From: Candidatus Margulisiibacteriota bacterium
GTDB lineage: Bacteria > Margulisbacteria > WOR-1 > JAHJIW01
Direction of reading: 5' to 3'
NCBI GenBank assembly: GCA_018823125.1
Contig: JAHJIW010000009.1
Coordinates: forward strand, 4,170 to 68,169
Length of the DNA stretch: 64,000 nucleotides
This document shows, one piece after another, positions 5,045 to 61,439 of this stretch (position 1 is the first letter of the stretch; each line of letters opens with the position of its first letter). The notes under the pieces were generated by a model. That model was not told the origin of the DNA, made no database searches, and was given only the letters and a program-made list of their open reading frames with translations. The position numbers and the translations under genes were made by a program.

Positions 5045-5074
5045 GCAAGTTTTGGCCTTCTAACCACGATATAT
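5045..5074 (+). promoter_or_regulatory. sigma28-like promoter
   Basis: GCAAGTTT-N14-CGATATAT. Confidence 0.65.
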
Positions 5075-5167
5075 AAAGTGTAGAAGAGCGAATTTCGGTA
5101 TCCCTAAGGAACCCTCCGAAATTCACTCTTAAGAGGCTCAAAACCTAAATTGATGGGGAGAAGCCCG

Positions 5168-7684
5168 ATGGTAAATAGACTCAAAAACTTTATATTTCTA
5201 CTCTTAATTTTTACATTTATTGTATCTTTTGCTGGATCTGCTTGTGCAATTAATATCACGCAAACACCGCCGAACCAAAATGACCTAGTTGAAGATTCTC
5301 TCATCAATTCCTATCATGAAAAGATCATAGTTGACGAACAAGCTGTTTTTACATTGGTCAAAGCGCCGGTTGGATTTACCTTAACTCCTGATGTGCTTGG
5401 AACCGGGGCTAATTTAGATTGGACCCCTACCAATAAATATGTTACCCACGGACACTGGGGAGGTGGACCAGATAATGAAATTGTTATCGAGGCAACCGGA
5501 GTAATTACCGGTACCACTGTTCAACATACGATCCTTTTGGGTGTATATAACAATAATCCTGTTTTTTATTCTACTAATCCATATTTAGTTCAAGACTGGC
5601 CAACGGGAGTGCCTTTGACGATTAACAGTTTTGATAATGATGATGAAGGTGACCTGGCTGAAAGACAAACTGATCCGGCTAACAGCCCCTTTTATAAGGC
5701 AGACCCATTTATTGGATCACCATCCAGTGCCTGGTCTACCGTAATTGATAAAGAAATTGGAATAGTCAAACTTGGATGTGATGTGGTTGGGTCAGTAAAA
5801 TATAATATCGTTGCTTTTGACGGTGTTGGAAGCGAAGCAACCTTTGATCCATGGACTACCTATACTGAATATACTTTAAAAGTTGAATTTGCGCAAAACC
5901 AACCGCCGGTGGCAGACAATCAAACGGTAACTATTAATGAAGGCGATACCAACATTCAAATAACTTTAACCGGTTATGACGTTTGGCCTTTTGGTATTCC
6001 GATCACTTTCTATTCCCAGGTTTTAAATTTACCTTCTGGAGCAACTTTAACTCCGGATGCTAACTTTAAAGATAACGGAATTATCTACTATGATCCTCCA
6101 AACACGGATTGGAACGGAACCGATACCTTTAACTTTAAAGTTTTTGATGGCGGGCTTTTTTCTCAGCCGGGGATAGTAACGGTTCAGGTCCTTCCGATCA
6201 ATGATGCTCCGGTAGCGGTGGATGATACATATGCTGTAGATGAGGGTGCTACCATAACGGTTTTCCCGATAAATGGTGTTCTAAGTAATGATACCGATGT
6301 TGACAATAATATTATTCAACTAAATGCAGTTTTAGTGGACGATGTTGACCATGGCTTATTGAATTTTAACTCTAACAATGGATCTTTTGTTTACGAACAC
6401 GATGGTTCCGAAACTTTGAGTGATACCTTTACTTACAAAGCCAATGATGGCCAGGATGACTCAAACGTTGCAACGGTTACCATAACCATTAATCCTATTA
6501 ACGATGCCCCGACTGCCGACGCCGGCCCGGATCAAAATTCATATTCTGCTTCTTTGGTAACCCTGGATGGTTCCGGATCTTCCGACGTTGATGGAGATCC
6601 GTTAAGTTATATTTGGATCAATGCGCATGGGATTACCTTAGATGATATATATGCGGTTAATCCAACCTTTACTGCTCCGGAAGTTACTGCTCCGACCACT
6701 TATACCTTTACTTTAACGGTCACCGATCCTTCAGGATTAATTGATAGTGATGAGGTAGATATCACCATCAGCGAAGCTCCGGATTCGATTGCTCCAATTA
6801 TTAACGCTACGGTCAATGGTACTTTAGGTGATAATAATTGGTACGTAAGCGAAATTACAATCGATATGGAAGCCGAAGATCCTGATTCAGGAATTGCTAA
6901 GATTGTGTACTGGGCAAATTCTGATGCTCCTACCGAAGTTTATACCACTACTGCCTCTGACGTAATTGCAGTGGATGGATCACATACCTTTAGTTGTTAT
7001 GCCGTGGATAACGTTGGCAATACCAGTGCCACGGTTCTGATCGAAGATCTTCATATTGACACTGCTCCGCCTGAAATTACGGATGTAAAGTTAGAGGATA
7101 CTTATTTAGCAGAAAGCGGTACCGTTGACTTTGGTGCCGTGATCCCCGGTGTGTATCCTCAGCTTTCCGCCAGTGTTTCTGACGTTATGTCTGGTGTAGC
7201 CGAAGACGAAATTTGTATTAGTTTCAACGGCAGCGATCTTTCACTGAGCGCGAGCGAAGTTACTGGTATCGTTGGCATGGGAACCGCCTATGAGCTTAGT
7301 TCTACTTCTTCAGGCTTAGGTGTTGGAACTAATGAATTTGAAATTGTAGCGCGAGACTTAGCTGGAAATGAAACAACCTATAACGCCCGGGTTAATGCCG
7401 AAGCGCTGATTACTTACGGATACATTTATCCTAACCCATGGCATTTAGACATACCGTTGAGCATTACTTTTGGAATATCCGAAGCTAAGGACGTTACCGT
7501 ACATATATATGATGAGGTTTCCAGATTACGTAAAGTATTGAACTACAGCGCAGTAGCTGGAAACAACACCTTTACCTGGAGCGACGATGTTGGGTTAGGC
7601 AATGGATTATATCCATTTAAGGTATTTACTACCGCGGATAAGCAAATTTTGTTTACCGGTAAATTAGTTGTGGTGAGGAGATAA
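5168..7684 (+). CDS. Secreted Ig/cadherin-like repeat + PKD surface protein with C-terminal T9SS-CTD/FlgD-Ig-like domain
   Basis: Signal peptide; NQPPVA/NDAPVAVDD/NDAPTADAG repeats; C-terminal YIYPNPW..VHIYD..FTW..GNGLYPFKV..GKLVVVR; start moved to ATG 5168 after GGGGAG. Confidence 0.8.
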   Translation: MVNRLKNFIFLLLIFTFIVSFAGSACAINITQTPPNQNDLVEDSLINSYHEKIIVDEQAVFTLVKAPVGFTLTPDVLGTGANLDWTPTNKYVTHGHWGGGPDNEIVIEATGVITGTTVQHTILLGVYNNNPVFYSTNPYLVQDWPTGVPLTINSFDNDDEGDLAERQTDPANSPFYKADPFIGSPSSAWSTVIDKEIGIVKLGCDVVGSVKYNIVAFDGVGSEATFDPWTTYTEYTLKVEFAQNQPPVADNQTVTINEGDTNIQITLTGYDVWPFGIPITFYSQVLNLPSGATLTPDANFKDNGIIYYDPPNTDWNGTDTFNFKVFDGGLFSQPGIVTVQVLPINDAPVAVDDTYAVDEGATITVFPINGVLSNDTDVDNNIIQLNAVLVDDVDHGLLNFNSNNGSFVYEHDGSETLSDTFTYKANDGQDDSNVATVTITINPINDAPTADAGPDQNSYSASLVTLDGSGSSDVDGDPLSYIWINAHGITLDDIYAVNPTFTAPEVTAPTTYTFTLTVTDPSGLIDSDEVDITISEAPDSIAPIINATVNGTLGDNNWYVSEITIDMEAEDPDSGIAKIVYWANSDAPTEVYTTTASDVIAVDGSHTFSCYAVDNVGNTSATVLIEDLHIDTAPPEITDVKLEDTYLAESGTVDFGAVIPGVYPQLSASVSDVMSGVAEDEICISFNGSDLSLSASEVTGIVGMGTAYELSSTSSGLGVGTNEFEIVARDLAGNETTYNARVNAEALITYGYIYPNPWHLDIPLSITFGISEAKDVTVHIYDEVSRLRKVLNYSAVAGNNTFTWSDDVGLGNGLYPFKVFTTADKQILFTGKLVVVRR

Positions 7685-7687
7685 TAC

Positions 7688-9916
7688 GTGAAAACTAAGT
7701 TATTTAAAATTTTATTAACTACTTTAATCTTCGGAATCCTGTTTGCGGCTGCTTCTTTTGCCGTGATTGATCCGATGTACATTGGGGTAGGAGCCAGACC
7801 GTTAGGCATGGGTAAAGCTTATGTTGGTTATGCCGAAGATGGTAACGCTATGTTCATGAACCCGGCTGGATTAGGCCGCATCGACCGCATTAAGTTTAAC
7901 AGTATGTCGGCTACCATGATGGGTGACATTAACTATCTGGTATTAGGCGGAGTTTACCCATTAGCCGAAGGACAATCGGTAGGCGTAGGTTATGTTGGAC
8001 TGGGTTCTGGCGGAATTGACCTAAGAGATAACAGCGGAAACTCAGTTGGAACTGGTGATTACAACAGTGCAGTTTTCTTTCTTTCTTATGGTCTTAAAGC
8101 TAATAATTTAATCTCAACTGCTCCCGAGAATTTATACTTAGGCGCTAACTTAAAATACTTCAGCCGTGCTTTAGCTGGTTCTTCTGACATGGAAGAGGGC
8201 AGTGGATCCGGTTTTGATGTGGACGTCAGTTTACTTTATCAAGCTAAACCATGGTTAAGACTAGGTTATACTCAGCAAAATACGTTACCTTCAAGTTTAG
8301 GGGCAAAAATCAATTTTGCTAATGGATATTCCGAAGGAATTCCTTTAGTTTCTAAAGTTGGCGGTAGAGTTCAGGTTTTAGGTGAAAAGGAAACCGCGCT
8401 ACGCGAAGCTAATTTTGATTTATCAATTGGTTTAGACGCTGATATTTACGTTACCGAAAAATTACCAACTGCTTTTCACTTAGGAACCGAAATTTGGCCA
8501 AATGAAATATTAGCGATCAGAATGGGGCTTGACCAAGATCCGAGTGTTAATGGCCTAGTCACTAACATTTGTGCTGGAATGGGTGTTCGTTACCGCGGAT
8601 TCGAATTTAATTATGCTTACCATCCTTACACCGAGTTTTCACAGGATACTACTCACTATTTCTCTATTGCCTATGTTGGTGAATCAATTGTTCCTTTTGT
8701 ACTAACTGTTGATGCTCCTTCAGATAAAGTGATCACTAAAGACGAAAAAGTAAGAGTTTCGGGTAAAGTAGAAGGATTAAAGAGAGATAAACTACGCACC
8801 TTAAAAATCAATGGCACTTCCATTGCTTTAAATGACGATAAAACCTTTGAAGCTGACGTTACTTTAGAAGTTGGTAAAAACTTAATCAAAGTTGAAGCCG
8901 AAAGAAACGACGGGGCTGCGGATCAAGCTAAAAAGCGCATCCTTAGAATTAAGGAATTTGCTGATATCAACGAAGATACCTTAGCTCACCAAGAAATCGA
9001 ATACTTTGGCACCATCGGATTAATCGAAGGCTATCCGGGCGGAAAATTTGATCCGGAAAAAGTTTTATCCAGAGTTGAATTATCTACCATTTTAGTTAGA
9101 ACTACTAACTTAGAAACGCCAAAAGTTTACGGACAGGTATTTGGCGATATTTCTTCCAGCCACTGGGCCAATCAATACCTCAAAGTAGCTAAAGACTATT
9201 ATTTAGTTGAAGGATATCCGGACGGATCGTTTAAAGCAGATAAAGAAATTAATCGTATCGAAGGCGCGGTGGTGGTTACTCGTTTCGATAATGATATCGA
9301 ATATCCGGAAGTAGTGGTTTCTAATCCTTATGATGATATTACTACTTCTCACTGGGCGGCACCGCACGTAACCGAAGCTAAGGATGCAGGCATGCTGGAT
9401 TATGTTATTACTGATTCGCTAAACGGACCAATTGGCGTTGATCGTTCGCAGTTTGTATCCATGCTGGCTAAAACTGGTATTGGACAACTATTGATTGATC
9501 AACTATTAGACTTCGAAACTGGTTATGAAACCCCGGATGAAAAGATCGTTTATATTCCTAATAAGATTATTGAACGTAGTGTCGCTGAAAAAGCTATCGA
9601 GAAATCTAAAAAATCCAGTTCAGTTAAATCTAAAAGTACAACTAAAGTTACTCAGCAAAAATCCACCAAATCATATGCAAAAAGCACCAAGAAATCTCAA
9701 AAAGTTGATATGGCTAAGCTGCGCAAATACCTGCAAACCTATGAGAAAACTGATATTGTTGGTACCGCCAACAGCAAAGGCACCGACGGCATGGTTTATA
9801 TCTTAGGTAACGGTAAGTTCTTGCACGTGATCGGATTAGGCGTAAGTATTTATGACGCTAAAGATGGTTCGTGGAAGAAAATTGACTACAATTTAGTGGC
9901 CTCAATCGTCAATTAA
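7688..9916 (+). CDS. PorV/FadL-like outer-membrane barrel fused to Ig-like and SLH domains
   Basis: GVGARPLGMGKAYV..NPAGL plug motif, alternating beta-strands, IEGYPGGKF/VEGYPDGSF SLH repeats, Lys/Ser-rich linker. Confidence 0.8.
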   Translation: MKTKLFKILLTTLIFGILFAAASFAVIDPMYIGVGARPLGMGKAYVGYAEDGNAMFMNPAGLGRIDRIKFNSMSATMMGDINYLVLGGVYPLAEGQSVGVGYVGLGSGGIDLRDNSGNSVGTGDYNSAVFFLSYGLKANNLISTAPENLYLGANLKYFSRALAGSSDMEEGSGSGFDVDVSLLYQAKPWLRLGYTQQNTLPSSLGAKINFANGYSEGIPLVSKVGGRVQVLGEKETALREANFDLSIGLDADIYVTEKLPTAFHLGTEIWPNEILAIRMGLDQDPSVNGLVTNICAGMGVRYRGFEFNYAYHPYTEFSQDTTHYFSIAYVGESIVPFVLTVDAPSDKVITKDEKVRVSGKVEGLKRDKLRTLKINGTSIALNDDKTFEADVTLEVGKNLIKVEAERNDGAADQAKKRILRIKEFADINEDTLAHQEIEYFGTIGLIEGYPGGKFDPEKVLSRVELSTILVRTTNLETPKVYGQVFGDISSSHWANQYLKVAKDYYLVEGYPDGSFKADKEINRIEGAVVVTRFDNDIEYPEVVVSNPYDDITTSHWAAPHVTEAKDAGMLDYVITDSLNGPIGVDRSQFVSMLAKTGIGQLLIDQLLDFETGYETPDEKIVYIPNKIIERSVAEKAIEKSKKSSSVKSKSTTKVTQQKSTKSYAKSTKKSQKVDMAKLRKYLQTYEKTDIVGTANSKGTDGMVYILGNGKFLHVIGLGVSIYDAKDGSWKKIDYNLVASIVN

Positions 9917-10546
9917 AGGTACAAAAACACATCCGATGCTTTCCGTGGTTACAATTTCCCCTTTGATTTTTTCTATGATGGTTAAAGTTTGAAAATATGG
10001 ATTTCCCACCGGAATAATTAGTTTCCCGCCCTCCTTAAGTTGATCAATTAAGCTTTGTGGAATTTTATCTGCTGCCGCAGTTACTAATATGCGATCGTAA
10101 GGGGCCTGCTTTTTGTATCCTTTAGCTCCGTTGCCAACTACAACCTCAAAATTTTGATAACCTAGTTCTTTGAGCTTATTGCTGGCACGATCTGCCAGGG
10201 TTTTAACTCTTTCAACGGAGATGACCTTTCTGGCTAATTCACAAAGGATGGCCGCTTGATACCCGGATCCGGCGCCGATTTCTAATATGGTTTCTTTGCC
10301 GGTTAGCTCTAATAGTTCAGTCATAATGGCCACCATATAGGGCTGGGAAATGGTTTGGCCTTCGCCGATGGGAAGGGCGCAGTCATCATAAGCCGCATCT
10401 TGAATGTTAGCCGGAACACACAAATGTCGGGGGACCTTACGGAAAGCTTTTAGTACTTTGGGATCGCGGATACCGCGGGCGATCAGCTGGGTATCCACCA
10501 TCTCATCTCTTAAAAATCCGGAGCGATCTTCCTGCATATTATTCAT
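9902..10546 (-). CDS. pcm: Protein-L-isoaspartate O-methyltransferase
   Basis: GQTISQPYMVA, LEIGAGSGYQAA. Confidence 0.96.
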   Translation of the reverse strand: MNNMQEDRSGFLRDEMVDTQLIARGIRDPKVLKAFRKVPRHLCVPANIQDAAYDDCALPIGEGQTISQPYMVAIMTELLELTGKETILEIGAGSGYQAAILCELARKVISVERVKTLADRASNKLKELGYQNFEVVVGNGAKGYKKQAPYDRILVTAAADKIPQSLIDQLKEGGKLIIPVGNPYFQTLTIIEKIKGEIVTTESIGCVFVPLIDD

Positions 10547-10652
10547 TATCGCTAAATCCCTCTCTAAAGTAAATAGAAAAATACCTTGACAATTGCTCAG
10601 ACTTCTTTAAAATGAAAATGAAAGTCAGTTTTTTATTGAGGAGTGTGTATTT

Positions 10653-11120: not shown

Positions 11121-11128
11121 GACAAAAT

Positions 11129-11953: not shown

Positions 11954-11983
11954 TGAAATTTCCTCCCTAAATTTTCGATAATT
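11954..11983 (+). promoter_or_regulatory. sigma28-like promoter
   Basis: TGAAATTT-N14-CGATAATT, starting immediately after the speB stop. Confidence 0.7.
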
Positions 11984-12001
11984 ATATAAGAGGGAATAAG
12001 T

Positions 12002-12814
12002 ATGCCTACTGGAATATCAAAAATGAGAGTTTATGCAAAAGATGGCCAACGCCGTAGCGGCCGAATTGCGGTTGCCCGACAAATATCACCTCGTCCTGAA
12101 ATGGACGTGGCACAAAAAGCCAGATTAGTTGAATTAAAAGAGCGTGCAACAACCATTGGCAACGATATTGTTGGTGGTAAGGCTTTATGGTCTTGGGCGA
12201 TTTTTGATTTTGGGGGAGAATTGCCTAGGGAAGGGGAAGACGTCGCCTATTGGCGTGGCTATTTTCAGGTAGACCCCGATCAGGTGGCCAGAGCCGGAGA
12301 AATTATCCATCAAGTAGCAGAAGAGCGAACGGAGCAAGACTTATTAACCCATTTTAAAGTTTTAATTGCTTGTGTGCCGGTGCGATCTCTTGTTCATGAG
12401 CTGGCGGGGCCGCCAAGTATGAAAACGTGGCCGGATGATAAGTACGTAGGAGATTTCAGGGCACATGAGGCGGGTTTGCCGATAAGCGCAATTTATGGGA
12501 TGAGGCAGGAAGATATGCTGGGGGTTTTAGCTTCTCTTTTTAGACAGGATGCGTGGAGAACAGAAATTGAGGCCGAAAGAATTGCCAGAGGACACTTTGA
12601 TTTTCGGCAGGGAACTAACCGTTTTAGAGATCCCAATTCCGGAGAACTTTCGATCTGCCTTTCTCACAATAAATTTCCCGGTCACACTAACGTGTTTTTA
12701 AAACGTTTGCATGCCGAAGGAAAAAACTGGAGAGAAGAAGTAGACGGGCCGACCACCAAAGAATTAGAGGCAGCGTGGAGAGCCGGAACGATAGCAGAAC
12801 TAGTTAACCCATAA
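12002..12814 (+). CDS. Orphan hypothetical protein, basic N-terminus
   Basis: 270-aa ORF with GAGGGA RBS; no recognisable domain. Confidence 0.75.
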   Translation: MPTGISKMRVYAKDGQRRSGRIAVARQISPRPEMDVAQKARLVELKERATTIGNDIVGGKALWSWAIFDFGGELPREGEDVAYWRGYFQVDPDQVARAGEIIHQVAEERTEQDLLTHFKVLIACVPVRSLVHELAGPPSMKTWPDDKYVGDFRAHEAGLPISAIYGMRQEDMLGVLASLFRQDAWRTEIEAERIARGHFDFRQGTNRFRDPNSGELSICLSHNKFPGHTNVFLKRLHAEGKNWREEVDGPTTKELEAAWRAGTIAELVNP

Positions 12815-20746: not shown

Positions 20747-20776
20747 TGAAATTTTCATAACGACATCGCGATAAAT
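20747..20776 (+). promoter_or_regulatory. sigma28-like promoter
   Basis: TGAAATTT-N14-CGATAAAT. Confidence 0.7.
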
Positions 20777-21609: not shown

Positions 21610-21639
21610 TGAAATTTCCCTCCATTTTTGACGATATAT
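21610..21639 (+). promoter_or_regulatory. sigma28-like promoter
   Basis: TGAAATTT-N14-CGATATAT. Confidence 0.7.
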
Positions 21640-33782: not shown

Positions 33783-33812
33783 TGAAATTTTTGGGGGGAG
33801 ATTACGATAATA
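33783..33812 (+). promoter_or_regulatory. sigma28-like promoter
   Basis: TGAAATTT-N14-CGATAATA. Confidence 0.7.
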
Positions 33813-38923: not shown

Positions 38924-39466
38924 GTGAATAAGAAACTAGCTTTACTAAGCGTAATATTATTGTTGCCTTTGATGGTTTTGGTGATGGGGATGGGGGAGAC
39001 GGTTAAAGTTGGTGGAGGTGCGCTGCGCAATTCAATTGACGTTGGGGACCGGGCGATTGATTTTACTTTAAACGATTTATTTGGTAATCCGGTAACCTTA
39101 TCTGACTATAAAGGGAAAGTGGTGTTTTTAAATTTTTGGGCAACCTGGTGCCCGCCGTGCCGCGATGAAATGCCCGGCATGGAATCATTATATACCGCGC
39201 TTAAGGGAGAAGATTTTGAAATGTTAGCGGTTAGTACCGATCGTGCTTCAAAATCAACGGTTAGCCAGTTTATATCTAACCGGGGGTTTACTTTTCCGGT
39301 TTTGTTAGATCCCAGCGGTAAAGCCTCAATCCCTTATGGTATATCCGGCATTCCTACTACTTTCATCATTGATAAAAGAGGAATAATTACGCAAAAAATT
39401 ATTGGGGCGCGTAATTGGGGTGACGTTTCGGTAATGAATCAGCTTAGGGAGCTAATTAGAAAATAA
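38924..39466 (+). CDS. TlpA/ResA thiol-disulfide oxidoreductase
   Basis: NFWATWCPPCRDEMP. Confidence 0.92.
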   Translation: MNKKLALLSVILLLPLMVLVMGMGETVKVGGGALRNSIDVGDRAIDFTLNDLFGNPVTLSDYKGKVVFLNFWATWCPPCRDEMPGMESLYTALKGEDFEMLAVSTDRASKSTVSQFISNRGFTFPVLLDPSGKASIPYGISGIPTTFIIDKRGIITQKIIGARNWGDVSVMNQLRELIRK

Positions 39467-40183
39467 ATGACTAATCTGTCCGTAACCATAGCTTTTGTCG
39501 CAGGGATTCTTTCCTTTTTTTCGCCCTGCGTTTTTCCGTTGATTCCTTCTTATATTTTATTGATTTCGGGGCTTTCGTTTAAGGAAATTACCGACGCGGC
39601 GCAAACCGAACGCACCCGTTGGGTAATCATTATTAACTCGCTCTTCTTTATTTTGGGGTTCTCTTTAGTTTTTATTATTTTGGGAGCTACTGCCAGTTTA
39701 CTCGGACAAATATTTTTCATATATAAAGATGTCATCAGGATTGTGGGCGGAATCATTGTTGTGATGCTGGGCCTTTATGTGATGGGATTATTTCAAATTG
39801 GTTTTCTGAATGTTGAAAAAAGAATTAATCTGCCGGTGAAAACAACCGGATATCTAGGATCATTATTAGCGGGCATTACCTTTGGCGCGGCCTGGACGCC
39901 TTGTATTGGTCCAATTTTAGGGGCAATTTTACTGCTCGCCAGCTCTTCGAAAACCGTAACCACTGGAATTTTATATCTGGTAGTGTTTTCCTTAGGCTTA
40001 GCCATTCCATTTTTAATTACGGCGGCACTTTTACAAACCGTGATCAAATATATTACCAAGATTAATCGCTATATGGGTATTATCAAGGTGATAAGCGGCC
40101 TGCTTTTGGTTATAATTGGGCTGCTGCTACTTACTAATTGGTTTCAGTTGTTGGTCAACTTTATGCCACCCATAGGCATATAA
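39467..40183 (+). CDS. ccdA: Cytochrome c biogenesis protein CcdA
   Basis: SFFSPCVFPLIP, WTPCIGPILG. Confidence 0.93.
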   Translation: MTNLSVTIAFVAGILSFFSPCVFPLIPSYILLISGLSFKEITDAAQTERTRWVIIINSLFFILGFSLVFIILGATASLLGQIFFIYKDVIRIVGGIIVVMLGLYVMGLFQIGFLNVEKRINLPVKTTGYLGSLLAGITFGAAWTPCIGPILGAILLLASSSKTVTTGILYLVVFSLGLAIPFLITAALLQTVIKYITKINRYMGIIKVISGLLLVIIGLLLLTNWFQLLVNFMPPIGI

Positions 40184-40449: not shown

Positions 40450-40992
40450 ATGGATAAAAAGATATTAGGGGATTTATGCCAGGCGCTCAAGGCCGCGCAT
40501 GACATGGAGAAAAGTGGGTACGATATATATATGAAAGCAGCCGAAAAAACTTCCAATAAACTGGGAAAAAGCACGCTGGAAGCCATTGCCAAAAAAGAGC
40601 TGGATCATATCAAGGCGATTGATGAATTTACTAAAAAGGCTACCCAGGGAGATTTAAATTTAGCGATGGCCATCTCCAGTATCAACGTCTTGGATAAAAA
40701 GGATTATGTTCGTCCGATTATGGATAAACTGGCGAAAGAACTGGACGAAAAGGTAAAATCTGATTCTGATCTGGAAAAAGCGTATGAGGTTGCTATGCAG
40801 CTTGAGAGAGAGTCATATGATTTTTATAAAGATCTGGCTGATCAATCTGCCGATCCGCAAGTTAAAAAGTTTTTTGAATTTTTAATGAGTGAAGAAAACA
40901 CGCATTACGAACTACTGCAGGAATCTTTAGAATATCTTAATCATCCCGGTGACTGGTTTAAAGAACAAGAACGCTGGATTATGGAAGGATAA
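40450..40992 (+). CDS. Ferritin-like (rubrerythrin-domain) protein
   Basis: Two E..Y / ExxH di-iron half motifs. Confidence 0.85.
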   Translation: MDKKILGDLCQALKAAHDMEKSGYDIYMKAAEKTSNKLGKSTLEAIAKKELDHIKAIDEFTKKATQGDLNLAMAISSINVLDKKDYVRPIMDKLAKELDEKVKSDSDLEKAYEVAMQLERESYDFYKDLADQSADPQVKKFFEFLMSEENTHYELLQESLEYLNHPGDWFKEQERWIMEG

Positions 40993-40996
40993 AATA

Positions 40997-41527
40997 ATGA
41001 AAATCTTTAATGAAGGCGAAAATATTGTTATCGGCGATTTTGACGAAATTGAAGCTTTAAGAGTTGCGGTAAAGCTTGAAAATGACGGCATGAAATTTTA
41101 TTTAAAATCCAGTGAATTGGCTCCGGATGAAGAAACCAAACAGATGTTTAAAAATCTGGTTAAAGAAGAAGCAAAGCACATTCAGCGCTTTGAAAAACGA
41201 GCCGAGGAGATCGGTAAAGCCAAAAATATCGAAGTTGATCTTTCCCGCGGAGGAGAAGAGGAATTTTTTGATTTTATTGATCCGGGGGTCTTTGGAGATA
41301 CGTTAAATATCGAAAAAGTAATTGCCGGAGTTAATAATTGTTTGGATGCACTTACCATCGGAGAGCAATCGGAGGTAAATGCCATTAATTTTTATAAAGC
41401 GATTTTGAAGCACAATGATTCGGAAGCCGGCAAAGCGGTGATTAAAGATATTATTAAAGAAGAGCAAAAGCACCTAAAAACCCTGATTAAATATAAAGAA
41501 TTATTAGAAAAAAAAGGAGGAAAATAA
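40997..41527 (+). CDS. Ferritin-like (rubrerythrin-domain) protein
   Basis: ENDGMKFY..EEAKH; EVNAINFY..EEQKH. Confidence 0.85.
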   Translation: MKIFNEGENIVIGDFDEIEALRVAVKLENDGMKFYLKSSELAPDEETKQMFKNLVKEEAKHIQRFEKRAEEIGKAKNIEVDLSRGGEEEFFDFIDPGVFGDTLNIEKVIAGVNNCLDALTIGEQSEVNAINFYKAILKHNDSEAGKAVIKDIIKEEQKHLKTLIKYKELLEKKGGK

Positions 41528-41958
41528 TGCCTAGTATTGAAGATGTAAAACCACTCTTGATTGCATTGAAAGGTGAACAGGAAGCATTGGAGTTGTATAC
41601 CCGCATGAAGCAGCGCAGTACTAATCCTACCGGGAAAGAAATGTTTGAAAATCTGATTGCAGAAGAGAAAAAACATGCCCGGATTATTGAGGAAAGGCTG
41701 TCTACCATAAAAGCTCCGGTGGATACCTCGCAAATCAGCGAAAAAGTTTCATCATTATCTGAGGTTGATTTTGAGGATCCGGCCCTGAGCGATCTTGAAA
41801 TCATTAAATTGGCTATCGAAGACGAGAATGCGGCCTTTGCCTTTTATATGAAAGCTTCCGAAGAATCTACCGATCCGGAAGAAATTGCCATCTTTACGCT
41901 TTTGGCTAGAGACGAAAAAGGGCATATCGAGCTTTTGAAAAAAAGGCTGCAAGGGTAA
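41527..41958 (+). CDS. Ferritin-like (rubrerythrin-domain) protein
   Basis: EQEALELY..EEKKH; ENAAFAFY..DEKGH. Confidence 0.85.
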   Translation: MPSIEDVKPLLIALKGEQEALELYTRMKQRSTNPTGKEMFENLIAEEKKHARIIEERLSTIKAPVDTSQISEKVSSLSEVDFEDPALSDLEIIKLAIEDENAAFAFYMKASEESTDPEEIAIFTLLARDEKGHIELLKKRLQG

Positions 41959-41962
41959 TTCC

Positions 41963-42874
41963 ATGGCTGAAGTAAAAGATCTAATTATCATTGGAGCCGG
42001 TCCGGCCGGCATCACCGCTGCGGTTTACGCCGCCCGCAAAAAAATGGACTTCACGGTAATTTCTCGAGATATTGGCGGCCAGGCCGCCTGGTCGGGGGAT
42101 ATCGAAAATTATACCGGCTATCAGTTTATTTCCGGGCCCGATTTGGCCATCAAATTTAAGGAGCATATGGAAAAGTATGAATTTGATCTTAAGGAAGGGG
42201 GAGAGGTGTTAAAGGTTGAACAGGAAGGAAAAAACTTTAAGGTTAAAACTTCCAAAGATGAGGAGTTAGTAGCTAAAACATTGGTGATTGCTTCGGGAAA
42301 ACGGTCACGCCTGCTTAACATTCCGGGAGAAGTAAAATTTAAAAATCGGGGAGTCACTTATTGTGCAACTTGCGATGGTCCAATTTTTCAAGGTAAGACC
42401 GTGGCCGTAATTGGAGGCGGCAATTCAGCCTTGGATGCAGTCCTGCAAATGATTAAAATCGCCGAAAAGGTGTATCTCATCAACATTAACGAGGCGTTGG
42501 GTGGCGATGCGGTCATGATCGAAAAAGTAATGTCATCGGATAAGGCTGAGGTGCTAAATAAAACAAAAATGCTTGAAATCATGGGGGACAAGTTTGTTAA
42601 AGGTATCCGGGTTGATCAAGCCGGCAAAATCCGAGAAATTCCTTTGCAGGGAATTTTTGTGGAAATTGGGCTGCTGCCGAACAGTAACATTATTGATTTT
42701 GTAAAGAAAAATAAAAATGATGAAATTATGATCAATTGTTCGGCCGAAACCTCGGTGCCCGGGGTTTTTGCGGCGGGGGATGTCACCGATGTTCCGGAAA
42801 AGCAGATTATTGTGGCGGCGGGGGATGGGGCTAAGGCAACACTGGCGGCATTTAAGTATTTAGTAAAATTATAA
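41963..42874 (+). CDS. trxB: Thioredoxin reductase-like FAD disulfide oxidoreductase
   Basis: GAGPAG, CATCDG, GGGNSA, FAAGD. Confidence 0.85.
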   Translation: MAEVKDLIIIGAGPAGITAAVYAARKKMDFTVISRDIGGQAAWSGDIENYTGYQFISGPDLAIKFKEHMEKYEFDLKEGGEVLKVEQEGKNFKVKTSKDEELVAKTLVIASGKRSRLLNIPGEVKFKNRGVTYCATCDGPIFQGKTVAVIGGGNSALDAVLQMIKIAEKVYLININEALGGDAVMIEKVMSSDKAEVLNKTKMLEIMGDKFVKGIRVDQAGKIREIPLQGIFVEIGLLPNSNIIDFVKKNKNDEIMINCSAETSVPGVFAAGDVTDVPEKQIIVAAGDGAKATLAAFKYLVKL

Positions 42875-42887
42875 AGGAGGGTAAAAA

Positions 42888-43268
42888 ATGACAAAATTAT
42901 TAGAAGTTTATAAATGTGAGATTTGTGGAAATATTGTTGAGCTTTTACATGCGGGGGCGGGAGAGTTAGTTTGTTGTGGTCAGCCGATGAAGTTAATGGC
43001 TGCTAAAACAGAAGATCAAGGAAAAGAAAAACACGTTCCGGTTATCGAAAAGACGGCCAAGGGAATATTAGTAAAAGTTGGAGCAGTCCCACACCCCATG
43101 GAAGATAAACACTACATAGAATGGGTTGCTGTGGAAAAGGATGGTAAAGTTTTACGTGCATTCTTGAAACCGGGCGATAAACCGGAAGCTGAATTTCCAG
43201 TTTCTGCGGATGGAGGCATAGCTAGAGAATATTGCAGCGTCCATGGCCTATGGTCAGCGGGCAATTAA
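42888..43268 (+). CDS. dfx: Desulfoferrodoxin (superoxide reductase)
   Basis: CEICGN..CCG, EKHVP, HPM..HYIEW, CSVHG. Confidence 0.95.
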
Positions 43269-43869: not shown

Positions 43870-43899
43870 GCAAGTTTTAGGTCTAAAGAACCGATATAT
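43870..43899 (+). promoter_or_regulatory. sigma28-like promoter
   Basis: GCAAGTTT-N14-CGATATAT. Confidence 0.7.
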
Positions 43900-43999: not shown

Positions 44000-44098
44000 T
44001 TTTTCTGATGCGTTTACCTTCTTGGTTGACCTCTAATATCTGATAAAAATTCTTGTTAATTTCCTGCAATATTTCTGCATTATTGTCGATAGGTAAAT

Positions 44099-51495: not shown

Positions 51496-51498
51496 CCC

Positions 51499-53973: not shown

Positions 53974-53990
53974 CAGGGAGGTGAAACATT

Positions 53991-54344: not shown

Positions 54345-54350
54345 AGAGTT

Positions 54351-55644: not shown

Positions 55645-55727
55645 AACTTTTATTATTTTACTATAAATACCAAAAATTCAGCAGTCTTCTTTTTTTTAGC
55701 GTTGGCTTATGTTACGATTACCTTGAT

Positions 55728-56177: not shown

Positions 56178-56182
56178 TTCAA

Positions 56183-56497
56183 ATGTCAAAAGCAATCAAT
56201 GATGCCGAGTTTTCAAAAGAAGTTGAACAAAATCAGGGAGTAGTATTTGTAGATTTTTGGGCGCCGTGGTGTGGTCCGTGCGTAATGATGGCGCCGCTTT
56301 ACGATAAAATGTCAAAAAAATATCCTTCAATTAAGTTTTGTAAAGTAGATACTACCCAAAGTTCCGAAAAAGCGATGCAATATGCCGTAACCGGTATTCC
56401 CTGCATCATTATTTTTAAGAATGGAAAAGAAGTGGAACGTATTATAGGGCTGCAGCCTGAGCCAAAGTTTGAGCAAACTATAAATAAGTACGCTTAG
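56183..56497 (+). CDS. trxA: Thioredoxin
   Basis: WCGPC. Confidence 0.93.
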
Positions 56498-56498
56498 C

Positions 56499-57191
56499 AT
56501 GATCAAGTTAGTTTTACTGCGCCACGGCGAAAGTATCTGGAACAAAGAAAATATCTTTACCGGCTGGACTGACGTGGATTTATCAGCCAAAGGGGTGGAG
56601 GAGGCGCGTGCCGCCGGAAAAATATTAAAAAAAGACGATTATACTTTTGATATTGCTTACTGTTCAGTCCTAATCCGAGCGATTCACACGCTGAAAATTG
56701 TTCTTAAAGAAATGGGATTAGAATCTTTGCCGGTAGAATACTCATGGCGGCTGAACGAACGCCATTACGGAGCGCTGCAGGGATTAAATAAAGCTGAAAC
56801 TGCAAAAAAGTATGGTGAAGAACAAGTTTTTAAATGGAGAAGGAGCTTTGCCATCCGGCCGCCTGCGCTAACCGAAACGGATGAACGTTATCCGGGCCAT
56901 GATCCAAAGTATAAGGATTTAACCAAAGATGAACTTCCGTTAACCGAATCTTTAAAGGATTCGATTGCCCGCTTTATGCCTTATTGGCACGCGGTTATTG
57001 TTCCAGCCATCCAATCCGGTAAAAAAGTTTTCATTTCAGCCCACGGCAACAGTTTAAGAGCTTTGATCAAACAGCTTGATAATATTTCGGATGAGGAAAT
57101 TCCAAATCTCAACCTACCGACCGGGATTCCTTTGATTTATGAATTAGACGAATCCTTAAAGCCCATACGGCATTATTACTTAGGAGACTAA
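56499..57191 (+). CDS. gpmA: 2,3-BPG-dependent phosphoglycerate mutase
   Basis: [20 protein letters not shown]. Confidence 0.96.
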
Positions 57192-57205
57192 GTGGCGCGA
57201 CAGGG

Positions 57206-57880
57206 TTATTTTGCCGGCTTCACATACTTTGGCAGCGTCAACATTATATATACAATAAATAACGATAATATTGCCGAGAAAAAGCACCATACCGAATCAA
57301 AAGCCGCTTTGTTAATAAACTCAGCCAAAAGGATCGAACCGATTAGTAAAAATCCAAAAATCTTCAATTTAACGTCGGATCCAATTAGGAACGGAGGTAC
57401 TACCGCCAATAAATAAAAGACAATATAGATTTCTTTTAAAATATTGGGTCGGGTGGTGGCATAGGCAATGGAGTGGCCGATAACTTTGGTGTCCAGTGTG
57501 ATCGCTCCGATCAGTAGCGGGGCGTAAGCCGCAACTCCAACTCCAAATCCGATGACCGTTAATACAAACAACAGTCTTTTAACCGGGCGATTAACTTCTT
57601 CTTTTTCAGCCATAAACACGGCTAGCGGTGAATAAAATGGCCAGAAGAAAAAGGCAAAGAACAGGAAAAGAAAGGAAAATATTTTAACCATGACCGGGAA
57701 TCCAAACCCCAGATTCAGCCACACAAACCCTTCCGTGATTTGTTGAAGTCCAAAAAACAGGGGTACCGCAGCAAACAGCAAGTAATCACGATCTTTTTGA
57801 GCTGCCTTGGTTATAGTAAGCGCGCTGGCAGCTACTAAAACGGAGCCGACACCGAAACTGGCGGGAGCAGAAAAACACAT
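57206..57880 (-). CDS. Multi-pass membrane protein (DUF6629-like)
   Basis: MCFSAPASF, QQITEG, SVWCFFSA. Confidence 0.8.
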   Translation of the reverse strand: MCFSAPASFGVGSVLVAASALTITKAAQKDRDYLLFAAVPLFFGLQQITEGFVWLNLGFGFPVMVKIFSFLFLFFAFFFWPFYSPLAVFMAEKEEVNRPVKRLLFVLTVIGFGVGVAAYAPLLIGAITLDTKVIGHSIAYATTRPNILKEIYIVFYLLAVVPPFLIGSDVKLKIFGFLLIGSILLAEFINKAAFDSVWCFFSAILSLFIVYIMLTLPKYVKPAK

Positions 57881-57893
57881 AATAATTACCTCC

Positions 57894-58919
57894 TTAAGGC
57901 TTTCTCAATTCAGTGTACAGTATTTTTATTATCCCCGCGATGGGTGCGGCAAAAAATAATCCCCAAACTCCGATAAGATGGCTAAGTATTAACATGGCTA
58001 AAATTACCGTAATCGGGTGAAGATTTAACCTTTCCCCCATAATGCGCGGTACCAAAATTGTATTTTCAACACTTTGAACCACGATATAGAGCACGATAAC
58101 CTTAGCGGCCAGGAGCGGCGAAGAAATAAAAGCAATGATTACCGCCGGAACTGCTCCGATGAAAGGTCCCATCACCGGAATAAATTCGGTAATGGCGGCA
58201 ATTAACCCCAGTATCAGGAAGTACTTTACCCCTAAAAGATAAAGACCGAAACCACAGAGCGTCCCGATTAAAATACATAGTAAGAATACTCCCCTAAAGT
58301 ATCGGTGGAGTAGTGAATTAATATCTAAAATAATGGTTTGGGTTTTTTTCTGGTGATCTTTGGGCAGCAGTGCAATGATCCCTTTGAGAATTGACTCTTT
58401 ATCTTTTAATAAATAGAACGTAATGATGGGAATAACAATTAAGTAAATGAATTGCGAAAGAAATCCCGCCAGCGTAGCCGCGCTTTGATTAACAAAATTA
58501 ACCATCACGTTTAAAATATTTTGCATGCTGTTAACAATCACGGCGTTAACTTGGTCCGGCAGGTGCGCACCCCGATACCATTTAGTAATTGAGTCTAACG
58601 TGCTTTGGGTCGAAGCGATAAACTGGGGCAGATTTTCGGCCAGCCGGTTAAATTCGCTGGCAAAGGGCGGGGCAATGAAGCTAATTAAGGTCACCAGTAT
58701 AATAATTAAAATAAGCGCTGATAATATTATCGAAAGCGTCCGGTTAAGCCCCAGCCCCTTTGGTCTTTGGTCAGAAAGCAATTTAACCGCGGGGTTTAAA
58801 ACATAAAATAGTATCAGTGCAATGATAATTGGAAAAAGCGCGTCCTGAATGAGGTAAAGGAAAGCAAGAAAAATAATTAAACCAATTACTCTGGTAATCT
58901 GTTTGTAATCAACCTTCAT
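57894..58919 (-). CDS. AI-2E family transporter
   Basis: FIPVMGPFIG, ENTILVPRIMG..LHP. Confidence 0.92.
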   Translation of the reverse strand: MKVDYKQITRVIGLIIFLAFLYLIQDALFPIIIALILFYVLNPAVKLLSDQRPKGLGLNRTLSIILSALILIIILVTLISFIAPPFASEFNRLAENLPQFIASTQSTLDSITKWYRGAHLPDQVNAVIVNSMQNILNVMVNFVNQSAATLAGFLSQFIYLIVIPIITFYLLKDKESILKGIIALLPKDHQKKTQTIILDINSLLHRYFRGVFLLCILIGTLCGFGLYLLGVKYFLILGLIAAITEFIPVMGPFIGAVPAVIIAFISSPLLAAKVIVLYIVVQSVENTILVPRIMGERLNLHPITVILAMLILSHLIGVWGLFFAAPIAGIIKILYTELRKP

Positions 58920-59034
58920 GTTTATATTTTCGCACCAGTGTAGTCAAAAGTCAAAATAAAAAGACCCGATTTGAGTTGATCATTTGATGTTGCGTTGTTA
59001 GAATTCAGACAACTTATTACAAAGGAGACTAACT

Positions 59035-60126
59035 ATGAATTTTAGGAAAATGTTTTTAGCTTTATTGATCGTATGTGTTGTTACGACCGGAACGGCTTAT
59101 GCTTGCACGGTATTCAAGGTTACGGCTAAAGACGGGACCATGGTCAGTCCGCGAACCATGGAGTTTGGCTATGACTTAAAATCATCGGTAGACGTAGTGC
59201 CCCGTGGTATGGATTTTGCCAGTCCCGCACCAGATAATAAAGCCGGCCTTAAATGGGAAAATAAATACGGCTATGTTGGCATTAACGCTTTTGGCGAGTT
59301 TGGTATGGCTTTAGATGGTTTAAACGAGTCCGGGCTGGCTTACAGCGCGCTCTGGTACGAAACGGATACAAAATGGCAGACGGTTGGTCCAGGAGAAAAC
59401 GATGTTGCGTTGGCGCATATTTTGCTGGGTCCCTGGATTTTGGGAAATTTTGCTAATGTTCAAGAAGTTAGAGAAGGGTTAAAAAAGATTAAAGTTTTTG
59501 GAGAGATGATTCCGGAAATGGGGATGGCGCCTCCTCTGCATTCGGCAGTTTACGATGCTAAAGGCGGCTGCATTGTGATTGAGTATGATGACGGGGAGCT
59601 CAATGTTTATGATAATCCAATTGGAGTGATGACTAATGCGCCGCGCTTTCCCTGGCACGTGACCAACCTGCGGAATTATGTCGGCATGTCGTCGGGGCAG
59701 GCTACTCCGGTGGATTATAGTGGCATCAATCTTAAGCAAATGGGGCACGGCAGCGGTATGTTTGGCTTGCCGGGCGATATCACGCCGCCCAACCGTTTCG
59801 TAAAGATGGCAGTGCTGACTCATTTTGCTGACCAGGTAGAAGATGCCAAAGGCGCACTCAACCTGTCACGGCACATCATGAATAATGTAGATATTGTCAA
59901 AGGAACGGCGGTAGATAAAGATAAAAACGGAAAGATCACCGGCAGCGAAACTACCCAATGGACCAGTTTTCGTGACTTAACTAATCTAGTGTTCTATTTT
60001 AATACTTATGATAATTTGACGTTAAGAAAAATTAATCTTAAGCAGTTTGATTTTACATCTAAGAAAACGTTTGCTATGACGGGCGATGAAGAGCAAATTA
60101 TTGATATAACCGATCGGAGTAAATAA
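59035..60126 (+). CDS. Secreted linear amide C-N hydrolase (choloylglycine hydrolase family)
   Basis: Signal peptide then N-terminal nucleophile CT; DGLNE, MTNAP, LPGD..RF. Confidence 0.9.
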   Translation: MNFRKMFLALLIVCVVTTGTAYACTVFKVTAKDGTMVSPRTMEFGYDLKSSVDVVPRGMDFASPAPDNKAGLKWENKYGYVGINAFGEFGMALDGLNESGLAYSALWYETDTKWQTVGPGENDVALAHILLGPWILGNFANVQEVREGLKKIKVFGEMIPEMGMAPPLHSAVYDAKGGCIVIEYDDGELNVYDNPIGVMTNAPRFPWHVTNLRNYVGMSSGQATPVDYSGINLKQMGHGSGMFGLPGDITPPNRFVKMAVLTHFADQVEDAKGALNLSRHIMNNVDIVKGTAVDKDKNGKITGSETTQWTSFRDLTNLVFYFNTYDNLTLRKINLKQFDFTSKKTFAMTGDEEQIIDITDRSK

Positions 60127-60137
60127 AAAACTATTTC

Positions 60138-61397
60138 ATGAGAAGTTTTATCGTTTTATTTTTATGCGTGGTGCTGTCGCTTCCGGTTTTTGCTATGAAG
60201 GTCTACTTTGATGATCCACAGTATTCATTTCAGCTCCTGCGTGCTTTGGGAGATACTGCAGCCGGGGCCGCGGATATCGGCGAATGCCTTAAGACCGCAT
60301 ACCGCATCAAAGAAGGAGATGGGGAGAGCTGGTACCGTGAGTGGTATAAAACTGCGGAAGAGTTAGAGGCGGACGGGAATGAATTTCTTTCCCGGGGACA
60401 TAAACTGAGCGCGTCAGAAGCTTTCATGAGAGCTTCTAATTATTACCGTTCCGCAGAATTTTTTCTTCACGGAAATCCCGATGATCCCCGCATTCTACAA
60501 TCCTGGGAAAAAAGCCGGGATATGTTTGTTAAGGCAGTGGGATTGATCGATCAACCAATTGTTAAAGCGGTCAATATCCATTTTGAAAAGACAACTTTAC
60601 CCGCTTATTACTGTCTGGTTGATGATTCCGGAAAAAAACGTCCGTTGATCATTATCCATAGCGGCTATGACGGTACCAAAGAGGAACTTTATTATACCGT
60701 CGGTCTTCCGGCATTAAGGCGTGGCTATAATTGTCTGTTGTTTGAGGGGCCGGGGCAGGGTGAGGTCATCCGGGCGCAAAAGATTCCGTTCCGACCAGAC
60801 TGGGAGACGGTTGTTACCCCGGTGGTTGATTTTGCTTTGGATCAGCCGGAGGTTGATCCGGAACGCATCGCGTTAATGGGGATCAGTTTTGGCGGCTATC
60901 TTGCGCCCAGAGCAGCGGCGTTCGAGCCCCGCATCAAAACCTGTATTGCTAACGGCGGGGTGTACGATTTTCACTCTAATTTTGTTGCGAACAATCCGCC
61001 CGATTTTGAAAAGGAGCTGGATGATCCGAAAGCGGCTAAAGAGATCGATCAGGCCATTTATGCTGAAATGAAAAAGGACCCGGGCCTGCGCTGGGTTTTT
61101 AATAATGGAATGTTTACTTTCCGGTCTAAAACCCCAAGTGAACTGATCAGAATGACCAGGCCCTATACCATGCAGGGAATTGCGGATAAGATAAAATGTA
61201 ACATGCTGGTGGTCAACTCGGAAGGGGATAAGGATATGCCGGGGCAAGCTATTAAGTTGTATGATTCTTTGCAAAGTCCTAAAACCTATATGGAATTTAC
61301 CAAAGAAGAAGGTGCCGAAGAGCACTGTCAGATGGGCGCGGCTTTTATTTCCAATGAGCGGATCTATAACTGGCTGGATGAGAATCTTCAAAAATAA
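60138..61397 (+). CDS. Secreted alpha/beta hydrolase
   Basis: GISFGG nucleophile elbow, EEHCQ. Confidence 0.88.
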   Translation: MRSFIVLFLCVVLSLPVFAMKVYFDDPQYSFQLLRALGDTAAGAADIGECLKTAYRIKEGDGESWYREWYKTAEELEADGNEFLSRGHKLSASEAFMRASNYYRSAEFFLHGNPDDPRILQSWEKSRDMFVKAVGLIDQPIVKAVNIHFEKTTLPAYYCLVDDSGKKRPLIIIHSGYDGTKEELYYTVGLPALRRGYNCLLFEGPGQGEVIRAQKIPFRPDWETVVTPVVDFALDQPEVDPERIALMGISFGGYLAPRAAAFEPRIKTCIANGGVYDFHSNFVANNPPDFEKELDDPKAAKEIDQAIYAEMKKDPGLRWVFNNGMFTFRSKTPSELIRMTRPYTMQGIADKIKCNMLVVNSEGDKDMPGQAIKLYDSLQSPKTYMEFTKEEGAEEHCQMGAAFISNERIYNWLDENLQK

Positions 61398-61410
61398 CTT
61401 ACCCAAAAAC

Positions 61411-61439
61411 TGAAACTTTTCCCCGATTTATCGATAATA
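61411..61439 (+). promoter_or_regulatory. sigma28-like promoter
   Basis: TGAAACTT-N13-CGATAATA. Confidence 0.6.

Follow-up and report, generated by a model that had tools for sequence, protein, structure and literature searches.

Class-3 promoters recognized by the sigma-28 factor FliA/SigD classically follow the consensus TAAA-N15-GCCGATAA. Sigma factors of the FliA/WhiG family also act in developmental programmes unrelated to motility, such as those of the sigma-28 late genes of Chlamydia and of WhiG in Streptomyces, whose regulons are small, with a handful of promoters. Basal bodies without filaments are found in Buchnera. The Saganbacteria (WOR-1) are uncultured relatives of the Cyanobacteria, known only from genomes, and the DNA considered here, a window of 64,000 nucleotides (C8:4170-68169 of genome assembly G000), comes from this lineage of the phylum Margulisiibacteriota. 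The window carries six exact copies of a sigma-28-like motif, SAARTTT-N14-CGATAW, which recurs throughout the genome in two classes that have GAAATTT (G class) or CAAGTTT (C class) as their –35 block. It is most probable, at roughly 80%, that the motif represents the –35 and –10 elements of promoters read by sigma factors of the FliA/WhiG type, in a flagellar circuit that was kept and expanded.

These sites share with the classical FliA/SigD promoters the CGATA core, the offset of 21 nucleotides (nt) from the –35 element to this core, and the location of the sigma genes within flagellar operons. They differ from them in the –35 element, which is GAAATTT or CAAGTTT and not TAAAG, in the absence from the G class of the GC that precedes CGATA, in having no late flagellar genes to drive, and in belonging to a regulon about ten times larger. 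Compared with the Chlamydia and Streptomyces WhiG regulons, about 150 predicted promoters stand here against a handful.

The closest precedent is the FliA attack-phase regulon of Bdellovibrio bacteriovorus. Of the 140 attack-phase promoters mapped there, 92 carried TTAAG-N16-CCGATA (Karunker et al. 2013, PMC3627812), and FliA was proposed as a global regulator of non-flagellar and uncharacterised genes, of surface proteins and of some small RNAs (PMC3627812). Both regulons have a sigma-28-like motif and a promoter number of the same order. Bdellovibrio, a motile organism with a full flagellum, has a single FliA and experimentally mapped promoters, whereas the promoters considered here are predicted from sequence. 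Unlike Bdellovibrio, the present genome has no recognisable flagellin, FliD, MotA or FliG C-domain, and it has two FliA-like sigmas, two discrete –35 classes, and targets that are extreme orphan genes (ORFans) with arginine-rich N-termini. Another related system is that of Campylobacter jejuni, in which the Cia and Fed proteins are non-flagellar exports of the flagellar type III system (PMC2764114, PMC5223770). In Campylobacter, N-terminal signals and co-expression with flagellar genes under sigma-28 accompany the export of non-flagellar proteins, which for the present genome is only proposed; Campylobacter keeps a working flagellum and has few such exports, whereas about 100 ORFans are candidate substrates here. 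New in the present case are the lineage, a gene set in which neither filament nor motor can be recognised, a duplicated sigma accompanied by two discrete –35 classes and by a small protein predicted to bind it or fused to it, and targets that are Arg-rich ORFans. Full-text searches of a collection with few subscription journals, judged by abstracts, found only papers that touch in passing on flagellar genes of Saganbacteria or type III secretion in Margulisbacteria.

The motif and its geometry

In the window, SAARTTT-N14-CGATAW matches six times and on the + strand only (5046, 11955, 20748, 21611, 33784 and 43871). These are the six N14 sites of the original prediction, with true positions 1 nt to the right of those first given. 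Dinucleotide shuffles of the window contained on average 0.09 matches, and none of 100 shuffles attained six, so the motif is not equally frequent in shuffled DNA. Two further sites had been put forward, an N13 variant at 61411 and a weak one at 44066-44092, and both are genuine matches to a position weight matrix (PWM) derived from the genome, with 24 bits for the former, placed at 61412 (GAAACTT-N13-CGATAA), and 27.7 bits for the latter (GCAATAT-N14-CGATAG). The exact N13 form of the pattern has no match in the window because the 61412 site has C in place of T. A distance of about 20 bp from the previous stop codon, which had been described as usual, applies to five of the eight window sites, beginning 2-23 nt past the stop of a co-directional gene (11955, 20748, 21611, 43871 and 61412), but not to those at 5046 and 33784, which lie in divergent intergenic regions; the 44066 site shares its intergenic gap with the 43871 site.

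Across the whole genome, a metagenome-assembled genome (MAG) of 1.73 Mb in 19 contigs and 94% complete, the pattern has 77 matches at N14 against 3, 2, 4 and 2 at N10-13 and 0, 3, 3 and 2 at N15-18. The strict N14 spacing upholds the 21-nt offset between –35 and CGATA on which the comparison with sigma-28 had been based, and both the CGATA core and the fixed spacing of sigma-28 promoters are found. Iteration of the PWM converged on 149 sites at ≥14 bits, with few sites scoring 8-14 bits (a bimodal distribution); CGATAW, whose invariance among the 77 exact matches follows from the search pattern itself, dominates the PWM. A very large regulon had been projected from about one site per 8-9 kb in the window, and the 149 sites of the genome, about one per 11.6 kb, are in line with it.

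The sites also have a regular position relative to genes. A same-strand open reading frame (ORF) lies downstream of 148 of the 149 sites, and 137 of these 148 ORFs were also picked by an independent caller based on ORFs and codon usage. Start codons lie at a median of 32.5 nt past the end of CGATAW, and within 100 nt at 140 sites; the gap from stop codon to motif, for the 88 sites genome-wide with a co-directional upstream neighbour, has a median of 34.5 nt. An A-rich tract is found about 20 nt upstream of the –35 block, and conservation is confined to two short blocks separated by a 14-nt spacer of varying sequence. Judged by these features, the motif has the predicted anatomy of a promoter, unlike a repeat or a palindromic operator. 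A dispersed repeat of the miniature inverted-repeat transposable element (MITE) or repetitive extragenic palindromic (REP) type, or a repressor operator, would account for the sites that abut the previous stop codon and for a terminator-like hairpin after 8 of the 149; but it is hardly to be reconciled with the variable spacer and the lack of inverted-repeat symmetry, with the fixed orientation and distance to the start codon, or with a motif that is kept across the class when the downstream genes are not, and this explanation is accordingly given very little credence.

At those eight sites a GC-rich hairpin followed by a T-run separates the –10 element from the start codon, for which reason they may be attenuator-type leaders. 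Two hairpin leaders, at C9:129402 (+) and C9:136834 (–), share sequence, and one of them precedes an extra tRNA-synthetase paralogue. The top two G sites of the genome (59 and 55 bits), at C7:4018 and C7:4156 on the minus strand, are arranged in tandem 138 nt apart and are followed by near-identical sequence, with a terminator-like hairpin after one of them; they are candidates for small RNAs or for small-protein duplicates.

The motif is present in all 31 genomes of the class, with 7-77 matches each against 0-3 for a reversed control pattern. Across the phylum, 79 of the 81 genomes sampled contain it; copy numbers in the other classes are mostly 0-25, with 55 in a single genome. Both rpoD and the sigma operon are preceded by G sites in a genome from another family (L054, L048). 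A putative G-class promoter stands before the gene of a 71-aa zinc-ribbon protein (CxxC…CxxC) in two families (G000 C17:15876; L070 in G003), and this promoter-gene pair is therefore conserved. In the flagellated family f22 of the phylum, flagellin genes carry TAAAGAT-N14-CGATAA 113-115 nt upstream, in the same 7+14 geometry; in family f14, no CGATA was found within 250 nt upstream of the flagellins. These loci were searched with a regular expression for the flagellin N-terminus, which caught only 8 flagellin ORFs in 24 loci. Within the class, the flagellin promoter was tried as a guide to the true –35 class of FliA and set aside, as the sole class-level flagellin match (in G019) has no motif upstream. 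Two genomes of family f32, in another class (G067 and G082), have 55 and 26 exact copies and no flagellin match, and may represent a second, independent expansion of the regulon.

Two putative promoter classes and two FliA/WhiG-like sigma factors

The sites of the window had been taken as members of one regulon, which the genome does not support: it has two discrete promoter classes and two candidate sigmas. The PWM sites divide into a GTGAAATTT class (G, n=121) and a ATGCAAGTTT class (C, n=28) with no mixed forms, and the 77 exact matches consist of 60 GAAATTT and 17 CAAGTTT, GAAGTTT and CAAATTT being absent. The consensus of the G class is an A-tract followed by aaaGTGAAATTT-N14-CGATAW-atatatAG, and that of the C class is ttCATGCAAGTTT-N14-(C)CGATAW-atWAAGTG; the corresponding flank profiles are aaAAagTGAAATTTtt...CGATAa.tat.tag for the 121 G sites and TtCATGCAAGTTTt.gCc...cCCGATAaaatAaGTG for the 28 C sites. 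A C stands directly before CGATA in 17 of the 28 C sites and in 27 of the 121 G sites. Three C-class sites (C15:17427, C15:30968 and C16:15852) share a leader sequence (…AAGCCATCTGCAA…), which may be a conserved element of the 5′ untranslated region of surface-protein genes.

Four genes of the sigma-70 family are encoded in the genome, namely RpoD, one extracytoplasmic function (ECF) sigma and two FliA/WhiG-like factors, and thus a search for sigmas of the latter family, suggested with the original prediction, returned two. The first, of 242 aa (C3:12408-13136), lies between flgI and flgB within the flgFGAHI/flgBC/fliEFG operon and aligns over its full length to E. coli FliA (PDB 6pmi, residues 22-241). 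The second, of 203 aa (C16:63761-64372), follows flhA and consists of regions 2 and 4 only, without region 3; its region 4.2 helix GLSESQVSRI resembles GVSESRVSQL of FliA. The best PDB matches of both are FliA/WhiG structures, and TIGR02479 (FliA_WhiG) is the best specific NCBIfam model for both. The two FliA-like sigmas are found in 31/31 and 28/31 genomes of the class, at about 60-70% identity. Their presence or absence was considered as a discriminator between the promoter classes and proved uninformative, since both are near-universal in these genomes.

With 149 sites beside 527 upstream regions of at least 60 nt, and with a copy before rpoD itself, the motif might be regarded as the main housekeeping promoter of the lineage, read by RpoD. 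This is highly improbable. RpoD scores 385.9 with the RpoD_Cterm model (cut-off 354) and its regions 2.4 and 4.2 look canonical by eye, and TTGACA-N16-18-TATAAT-like sites are 24-fold enriched upstream of genes (0.97 per kb vs 0.04 inside genes), from which the housekeeping sigma is seen to have promoters of its own. Moreover, 17 of 20 random non-motif genes of the window are ordinary enzymes, whereas the sampled motif genes are mostly ORFans.

As to the two classes, a single FliA-like sigma could read both, in which case the flanks would be used by a second DNA-binding factor or as an UP-element variant, and the second sigma would have another, unseen regulon. The –10 element (CGATAW) and the 14-nt spacer are indeed identical in both classes, and the window gene 44099 is preceded by a C site and a G-variant site in tandem. 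Nevertheless, heptamer positions 1 and 4 covary perfectly (60, 17 and no mixed forms), as two specificities would give, and two FliA-like sigmas with differing region 4.2 helices are both kept class-wide, which makes a single reader rather unlikely.

The 203-aa sigma is the last gene of a three-gene unit, after a 125-aa ORF and a 70-aa ORF, with a G site (C16:63082, 41 bits) in front; at the corresponding position, 8 of 17 related loci have a G-type site. A G site before the sigma's own operon suggests positive autoregulation. The ORF of about 70 aa (C16:63533-63745) is directly upstream of the 203-aa sigma and is conserved in the alignment of relatives; its product has no Pfam or NCBIfam family, and two MAGs carry an in-frame fusion of this ORF with the sigma (L018:1819-2664 and L022:2779-3627, ORFs of 281/282 aa). 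In a structure model, the C-terminal half of the 70-aa protein contacts the N-terminal helices of the sigma (residues 2-30, 74-79) with an ipSAE of 0.80 vs 0.00 for the best control, contact agreement between runs of at least 97% and a partner predicted local distance difference test score (pLDDT) of at least 68, a mark reached by 58 of 80 solved complexes and by 2 of 110 mismatched pairs. The model supports binding of the 70-aa protein to the N-terminus of the 203-aa sigma.

If each class has its own sigma, the 203-aa protein would read the G class and the 242-aa protein the C class, an assignment that is slightly favoured over its converse. The former is suggested by the G site before the sigma's own operon together with its FliA-like region 4.2, and the more FliA-like CCGATA of the C sites fits the pairing of the C class with the 242-aa sigma.

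Genes downstream of the sites

The sites of the window and the genes that follow them are listed below, with coordinates of the window.

5046..5072, + strand: C-class site CAAGTTT-N14-CGATAT in a divergent intergenic region, with an ATG just upstream; exact match, PWM 29 bits
5150..7684, + strand: Big_9/cadherin-like/PKD surface protein of 844 aa with a hydrophobic N-terminus (Pfam)
11955..11981, + strand: G-class site GAAATTT-N14-CGATAA, 2 nt past the stop of an arginase-family gene; exact match, 38.8 bits
12002..12814, + strand: ORFan of 270 aa with an Arg-rich N-terminus; no Pfam family above cut-off
20748..20774, + strand: G-class site GAAATTT-N14-CGATAA; exact match, 37.5 bits
20806..21591, + strand: ORFan of 261 aa; no Pfam family, own structure model with pLDDT 0.32
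21611..21637, + strand: G-class site GAAATTT-N14-CGATAT; exact match, 45.5 bits
21677..21973, + strand: small ORF of 98 aa; no Pfam family above cut-off
33784..33810, + strand: G-class site GAAATTT-N14-CGATAA in a divergent intergenic region; exact match, 42.7 bits
33833..34747, + strand: ORFan of 304 aa, whose database gene call begins at residue 4; no Pfam family
43871..43897, + strand: C-class site CAAGTTT-N14-CGATAT, 201 nt upstream of the tetratricopeptide repeat (TPR) gene; exact match, 24.9 bits
44066..44092, + strand: variant G-class site GCAATAT-N14-CGATAG, with 6 nt between its end and the ATG; 27.7 bits
44099..46243, + strand: TPR-repeat protein of 714 aa; Pfam TPR_19, 27.4 bits vs cut-off 25
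61412..61438, + strand: variant site GAAACTT-N13-CGATAA with the usual A-rich tract upstream; 24 bits
61478..62140, + strand: ORFan of 220 aa with an Arg/Lys-rich N-terminus; no family above cut-off

All these genes answer to the description of orphan or surface genes under which they had been grouped: the genes at 12002, 20806, 21677, 33833 and 61478 have no Pfam family (0/5 G targets of the window above cut-off), and the two others encode the Big_9/cadherin/PKD surface protein and the TPR protein. The surface protein encoded at 5150 belongs to a cluster of four paralogues (BLAST), every member of which is preceded by a C-class site. The 12002 ORFan had no match in a word-indexed search of 5.8 billion proteins and a single marginal match among 30 class genomes, a search of the ESM Atlas with the 20806 ORFan gave no usable match, and the 33833 ORFan found itself and two marginal matches only among 1.84 billion representatives. 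The 44066 site is possibly a second promoter of the TPR gene 44099. Just upstream of the 43871 site, the window carries an oxidative-stress cluster typical of anaerobes, with two rubrerythrins and a desulfoferrodoxin (40949-43268), and this cluster is preceded by AhpC/TSA- and DsbD-like genes at 38924-40183. Scans of the window with Rfam and for tRNAs gave no matches.

In the whole genome, the expected enrichment of the motif upstream of ORFans was found: a Pfam family above cut-off is present in 10 of 30 random G targets vs 17 of 20 random non-motif genes of the window (Fisher p = 4e-4), and the G-class targets are mostly lineage-specific ORFans, which are strongly enriched among them. The families that were recognised comprise HEAT repeats, Rrf2, SLT, PHP, the class II tRNA-synthetase fold, Pkinase, TPR (two proteins), RelA_SpoT/HD and metallo-beta-lactamase. 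The enzyme-like members are extra, divergent paralogues with N-terminal extensions, whose canonical copies are elsewhere in the genome. For example, the synthetase-like target is 46% identical to a 504-aa copy elsewhere, and two RelA/SpoT-like targets are 24-27% identical to the canonical 732-aa copy; a kinase paralogue as well as PHP and radical-SAM-like genes likewise carry G sites. The claim that no housekeeping gene follows the motif holds in the window but fails genome-wide, since rpoD (C10:158548), an Rrf2 regulator and some enzyme-like genes carry it.

The G-class proteins have, in addition, a distinctive composition. At least five Arg are present in the first 50 residues of 82 of 108 G targets vs 112 of 1269 other proteins, and the N-termini of the G class contain 11.9% Arg, 6.5% Pro and 6.7% Asp plus Glu; over the whole proteins, Arg amounts to 7.4% and Lys to 4.5%, vs 4.2% and 8.1% in others. 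The GC content at third codon positions (GC3) is 0.359 in G targets and 0.411 in others, so the Arg excess is not a GC effect. A hydrophobic N-terminal 15-mer is present in 1 of 111 G targets vs 27% of other proteins and 8 of 20 C targets. A Shine-Dalgarno (SD)-like 4-mer precedes 66 of 111 predicted G-class starts vs 62 of 483 internal ATGs. Two trivial origins of the Arg-rich N-termini were rejected, namely wrong start codons, as SD-like motifs precede the predicted starts and the public call of 33833 begins only 3 codons later, and a signal at the nucleotide level, as the N-termini use Arg codons no differently from the remainder of the genes.

The C targets have a family above cut-off in 7 of 21 scanned proteins, the families being Big_9/cadherin/PKD, TPR (two), YkuD, alpha/beta hydrolase, FliK and a FlgD_ig-domain protein. 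The C-class targets are often Sec-type surface proteins, for which this class is strongly enriched.

The flagellar remnant and possible roles of the regulon

It had been stated that no flagellar genes are in the window. This holds for the 30 proteins scanned among the 76 called there, none of which is flagellar, but it is misleading, since two clusters of flagellar genes are found elsewhere in the genome. By Pfam, these clusters provide an export apparatus (FlhA, FlhB, FliP, FliQ, FliR, FliH and FliI, with FliJ just below threshold at 27.2 vs a cut-off of 28.4), rings and rod (FliF, FliE, FlgB, FlgC, FlgF, FlgG, FlgA, and FlgH and FlgI of the L and P rings), the C-ring proteins FliM and FliN, and hook-related genes (FliK, a weak FlgD-like protein and a short 279-aa protein of the FlgE/F/G family). 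FliG has 186 aa, with N and M domains only. A Pfam search of this 94% complete genome found no Flagellin_N (PF00669), FlgM (PF04316), FliD_N (PF02465), MotA_ExbB (PF01618) or FliG_C (PF01706), and the rod N-terminal domain matches four genes only, which leaves none for FlgK. Flagellin, FlgM, hook-associated and motor genes, the late flagellar set, are accordingly not among the targets of the motif, although one C site heads the fliK-to-flhB operon.

Among the 31 genomes of the class, FHIPEP is found in 29, flagellin in one, and FliG_C and MotA in the same three (G009, G013 and G025). These three motor-keeping genomes have the fewest copies of the motif (7, 7 and 8 vs 14-77), in a comparison of relatives that are not independent, two of the three being of one genus; the GC content of the G009 and G013 fragments is about 50% vs 42% in this genome. 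The sole Flagellin_N match of the class (G019:C4:62178-62933, L136:3178-3933) is an atypical 251-aa protein with a Sec-type signal peptide, whose gene adjoins that of an AAA-type ATPase and has no sigma-28-like motif upstream. In the present genome, C3:5323-7005 holds two genes of an operon led by a putative G-class promoter (C3:3652) and an ORFan: one is a second FliK-like gene, which stays below cut-off with Flg_hook at 24 bits, and the other, of 125 aa, encodes the FlhB C-domain only. The pair may be another switch of substrate specificity. The idea that a contractile-injection system acts as exporter instead was discarded, there being no match to a phage-sheath family in the genome, and two secretins are encoded away from the flagellar clusters.

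The circuit proposed here would be composed as follows. Alternative sigmas of the sigma-28 type, and not the housekeeping sigma, would read about 150 promoters, each class being served by one of the two FliA-like sigmas. Both sigma genes belong to a flagellar remnant that has a basal body and a complete type III export apparatus without recognisable filament, cap, stator or torque domain, and it is from this location that a circuit for late flagellar genes is considered to have been kept and greatly expanded, driving roughly a tenth of the genes. The expansion to about 150 transcription units would have occurred after or while the filament and motor were lost. Its expression may be stage-specific and may serve host or prey interaction.

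Several observations weigh against this circuit. The –35 element shares with TAAA(GTTT) the AA core and the T-run and differs from it at bases 1 and 4. The sigmas do not reach the curated cut-off of TIGR02479 (189.6 bits), the 242-aa protein scoring 137.8 and the 203-aa protein 72, and they are therefore named FliA/WhiG-like and not counted as members. In 9 of the 17 related loci, neither a G nor a C site was found before the sigma operon, and in G009, which keeps the motor, the sigma follows flhA without a promoter gap. The pairing of sigmas with classes draws on three indirect points, not all of which favour the same assignment. The Arg bias is much weaker in three other families, only 8 of 29 proteins having five or more N-terminal Arg, although R/(R+K) is still 0.48 vs 0.36 in neighbouring genes (p = 7e-4). 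Finally, the gene calls come from a simple caller of ORFs and codon usage, and some starts are off by a few codons.

Two views can be taken of what the G-class proteins do. In one, the flagellum of Saganbacteria would have turned, independently of the injectisome, into a non-rotating export machine, with about 110 G-class proteins as its substrates, and the regulon would have grown as motility went; this last point is suggested by the low motif counts of the genomes that keep MotA and FliG_C. The parts of this machine would be a basal body, L and P rings included, and a short hook-like rod, without filament, cap, stator or FliG torque domain. Its substrates would be the ORFans together with the divergent paralogues of kinases, RelA/SpoT, tRNA synthetase and lytic transglycosylase, marked by an Arg/Pro-rich, acid-poor N-terminal tag with Arg over Lys and no Sec signal, and their expression would be tied to the apparatus through the duplicated FliA-type sigma and its small bound partner. 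This scenario, read from gene content and composition, is rather doubtful.

A cytoplasmic, stage-specific programme is at least as likely, and comes close to an even chance. The G regulon would then be an internal developmental or stress programme, the Arg-rich N-termini would serve not as export signals but as tails that bind nucleic acids, polyphosphate or membranes, and the basal body would be an unrelated relic. It agrees with the G sites before rpoD, Rrf2, RelA/SpoT-like, PHP, radical-SAM-like and tRNA-synthetase-like genes and with the lack of a hydrophobic N-terminal segment in 110 of 111 G targets; moreover, type III substrates are not known to carry Arg-rich export signals. It is less easily squared with enzyme-like members that are divergent extra paralogues with N-terminal extensions and have canonical copies elsewhere, nor would it lead one to expect targets that are such extreme ORFans. 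The idea of a relic, for its part, has to face basal body and export genes that are intact and kept in 29/31 genomes of the class, as well as the second FliK-like gene and the FlhB C-domain gene in a G-class operon.

Whichever of these roles applies, about 10% of the genes bear one readily recognisable promoter signature, which provides a computable regulon label for ORFans class-wide. If promoters and sigmas are connected as proposed, a large global FliA regulon would be known for a second time after Bdellovibrio, and for the first time from a lineage in which motility genes are not recognisable. The motif, the motor-less export apparatus and the duplicated sigma together offer a testable case of a rewired motility circuit, whose new purposes may include secretion, a life-cycle stage or interaction with other cells.

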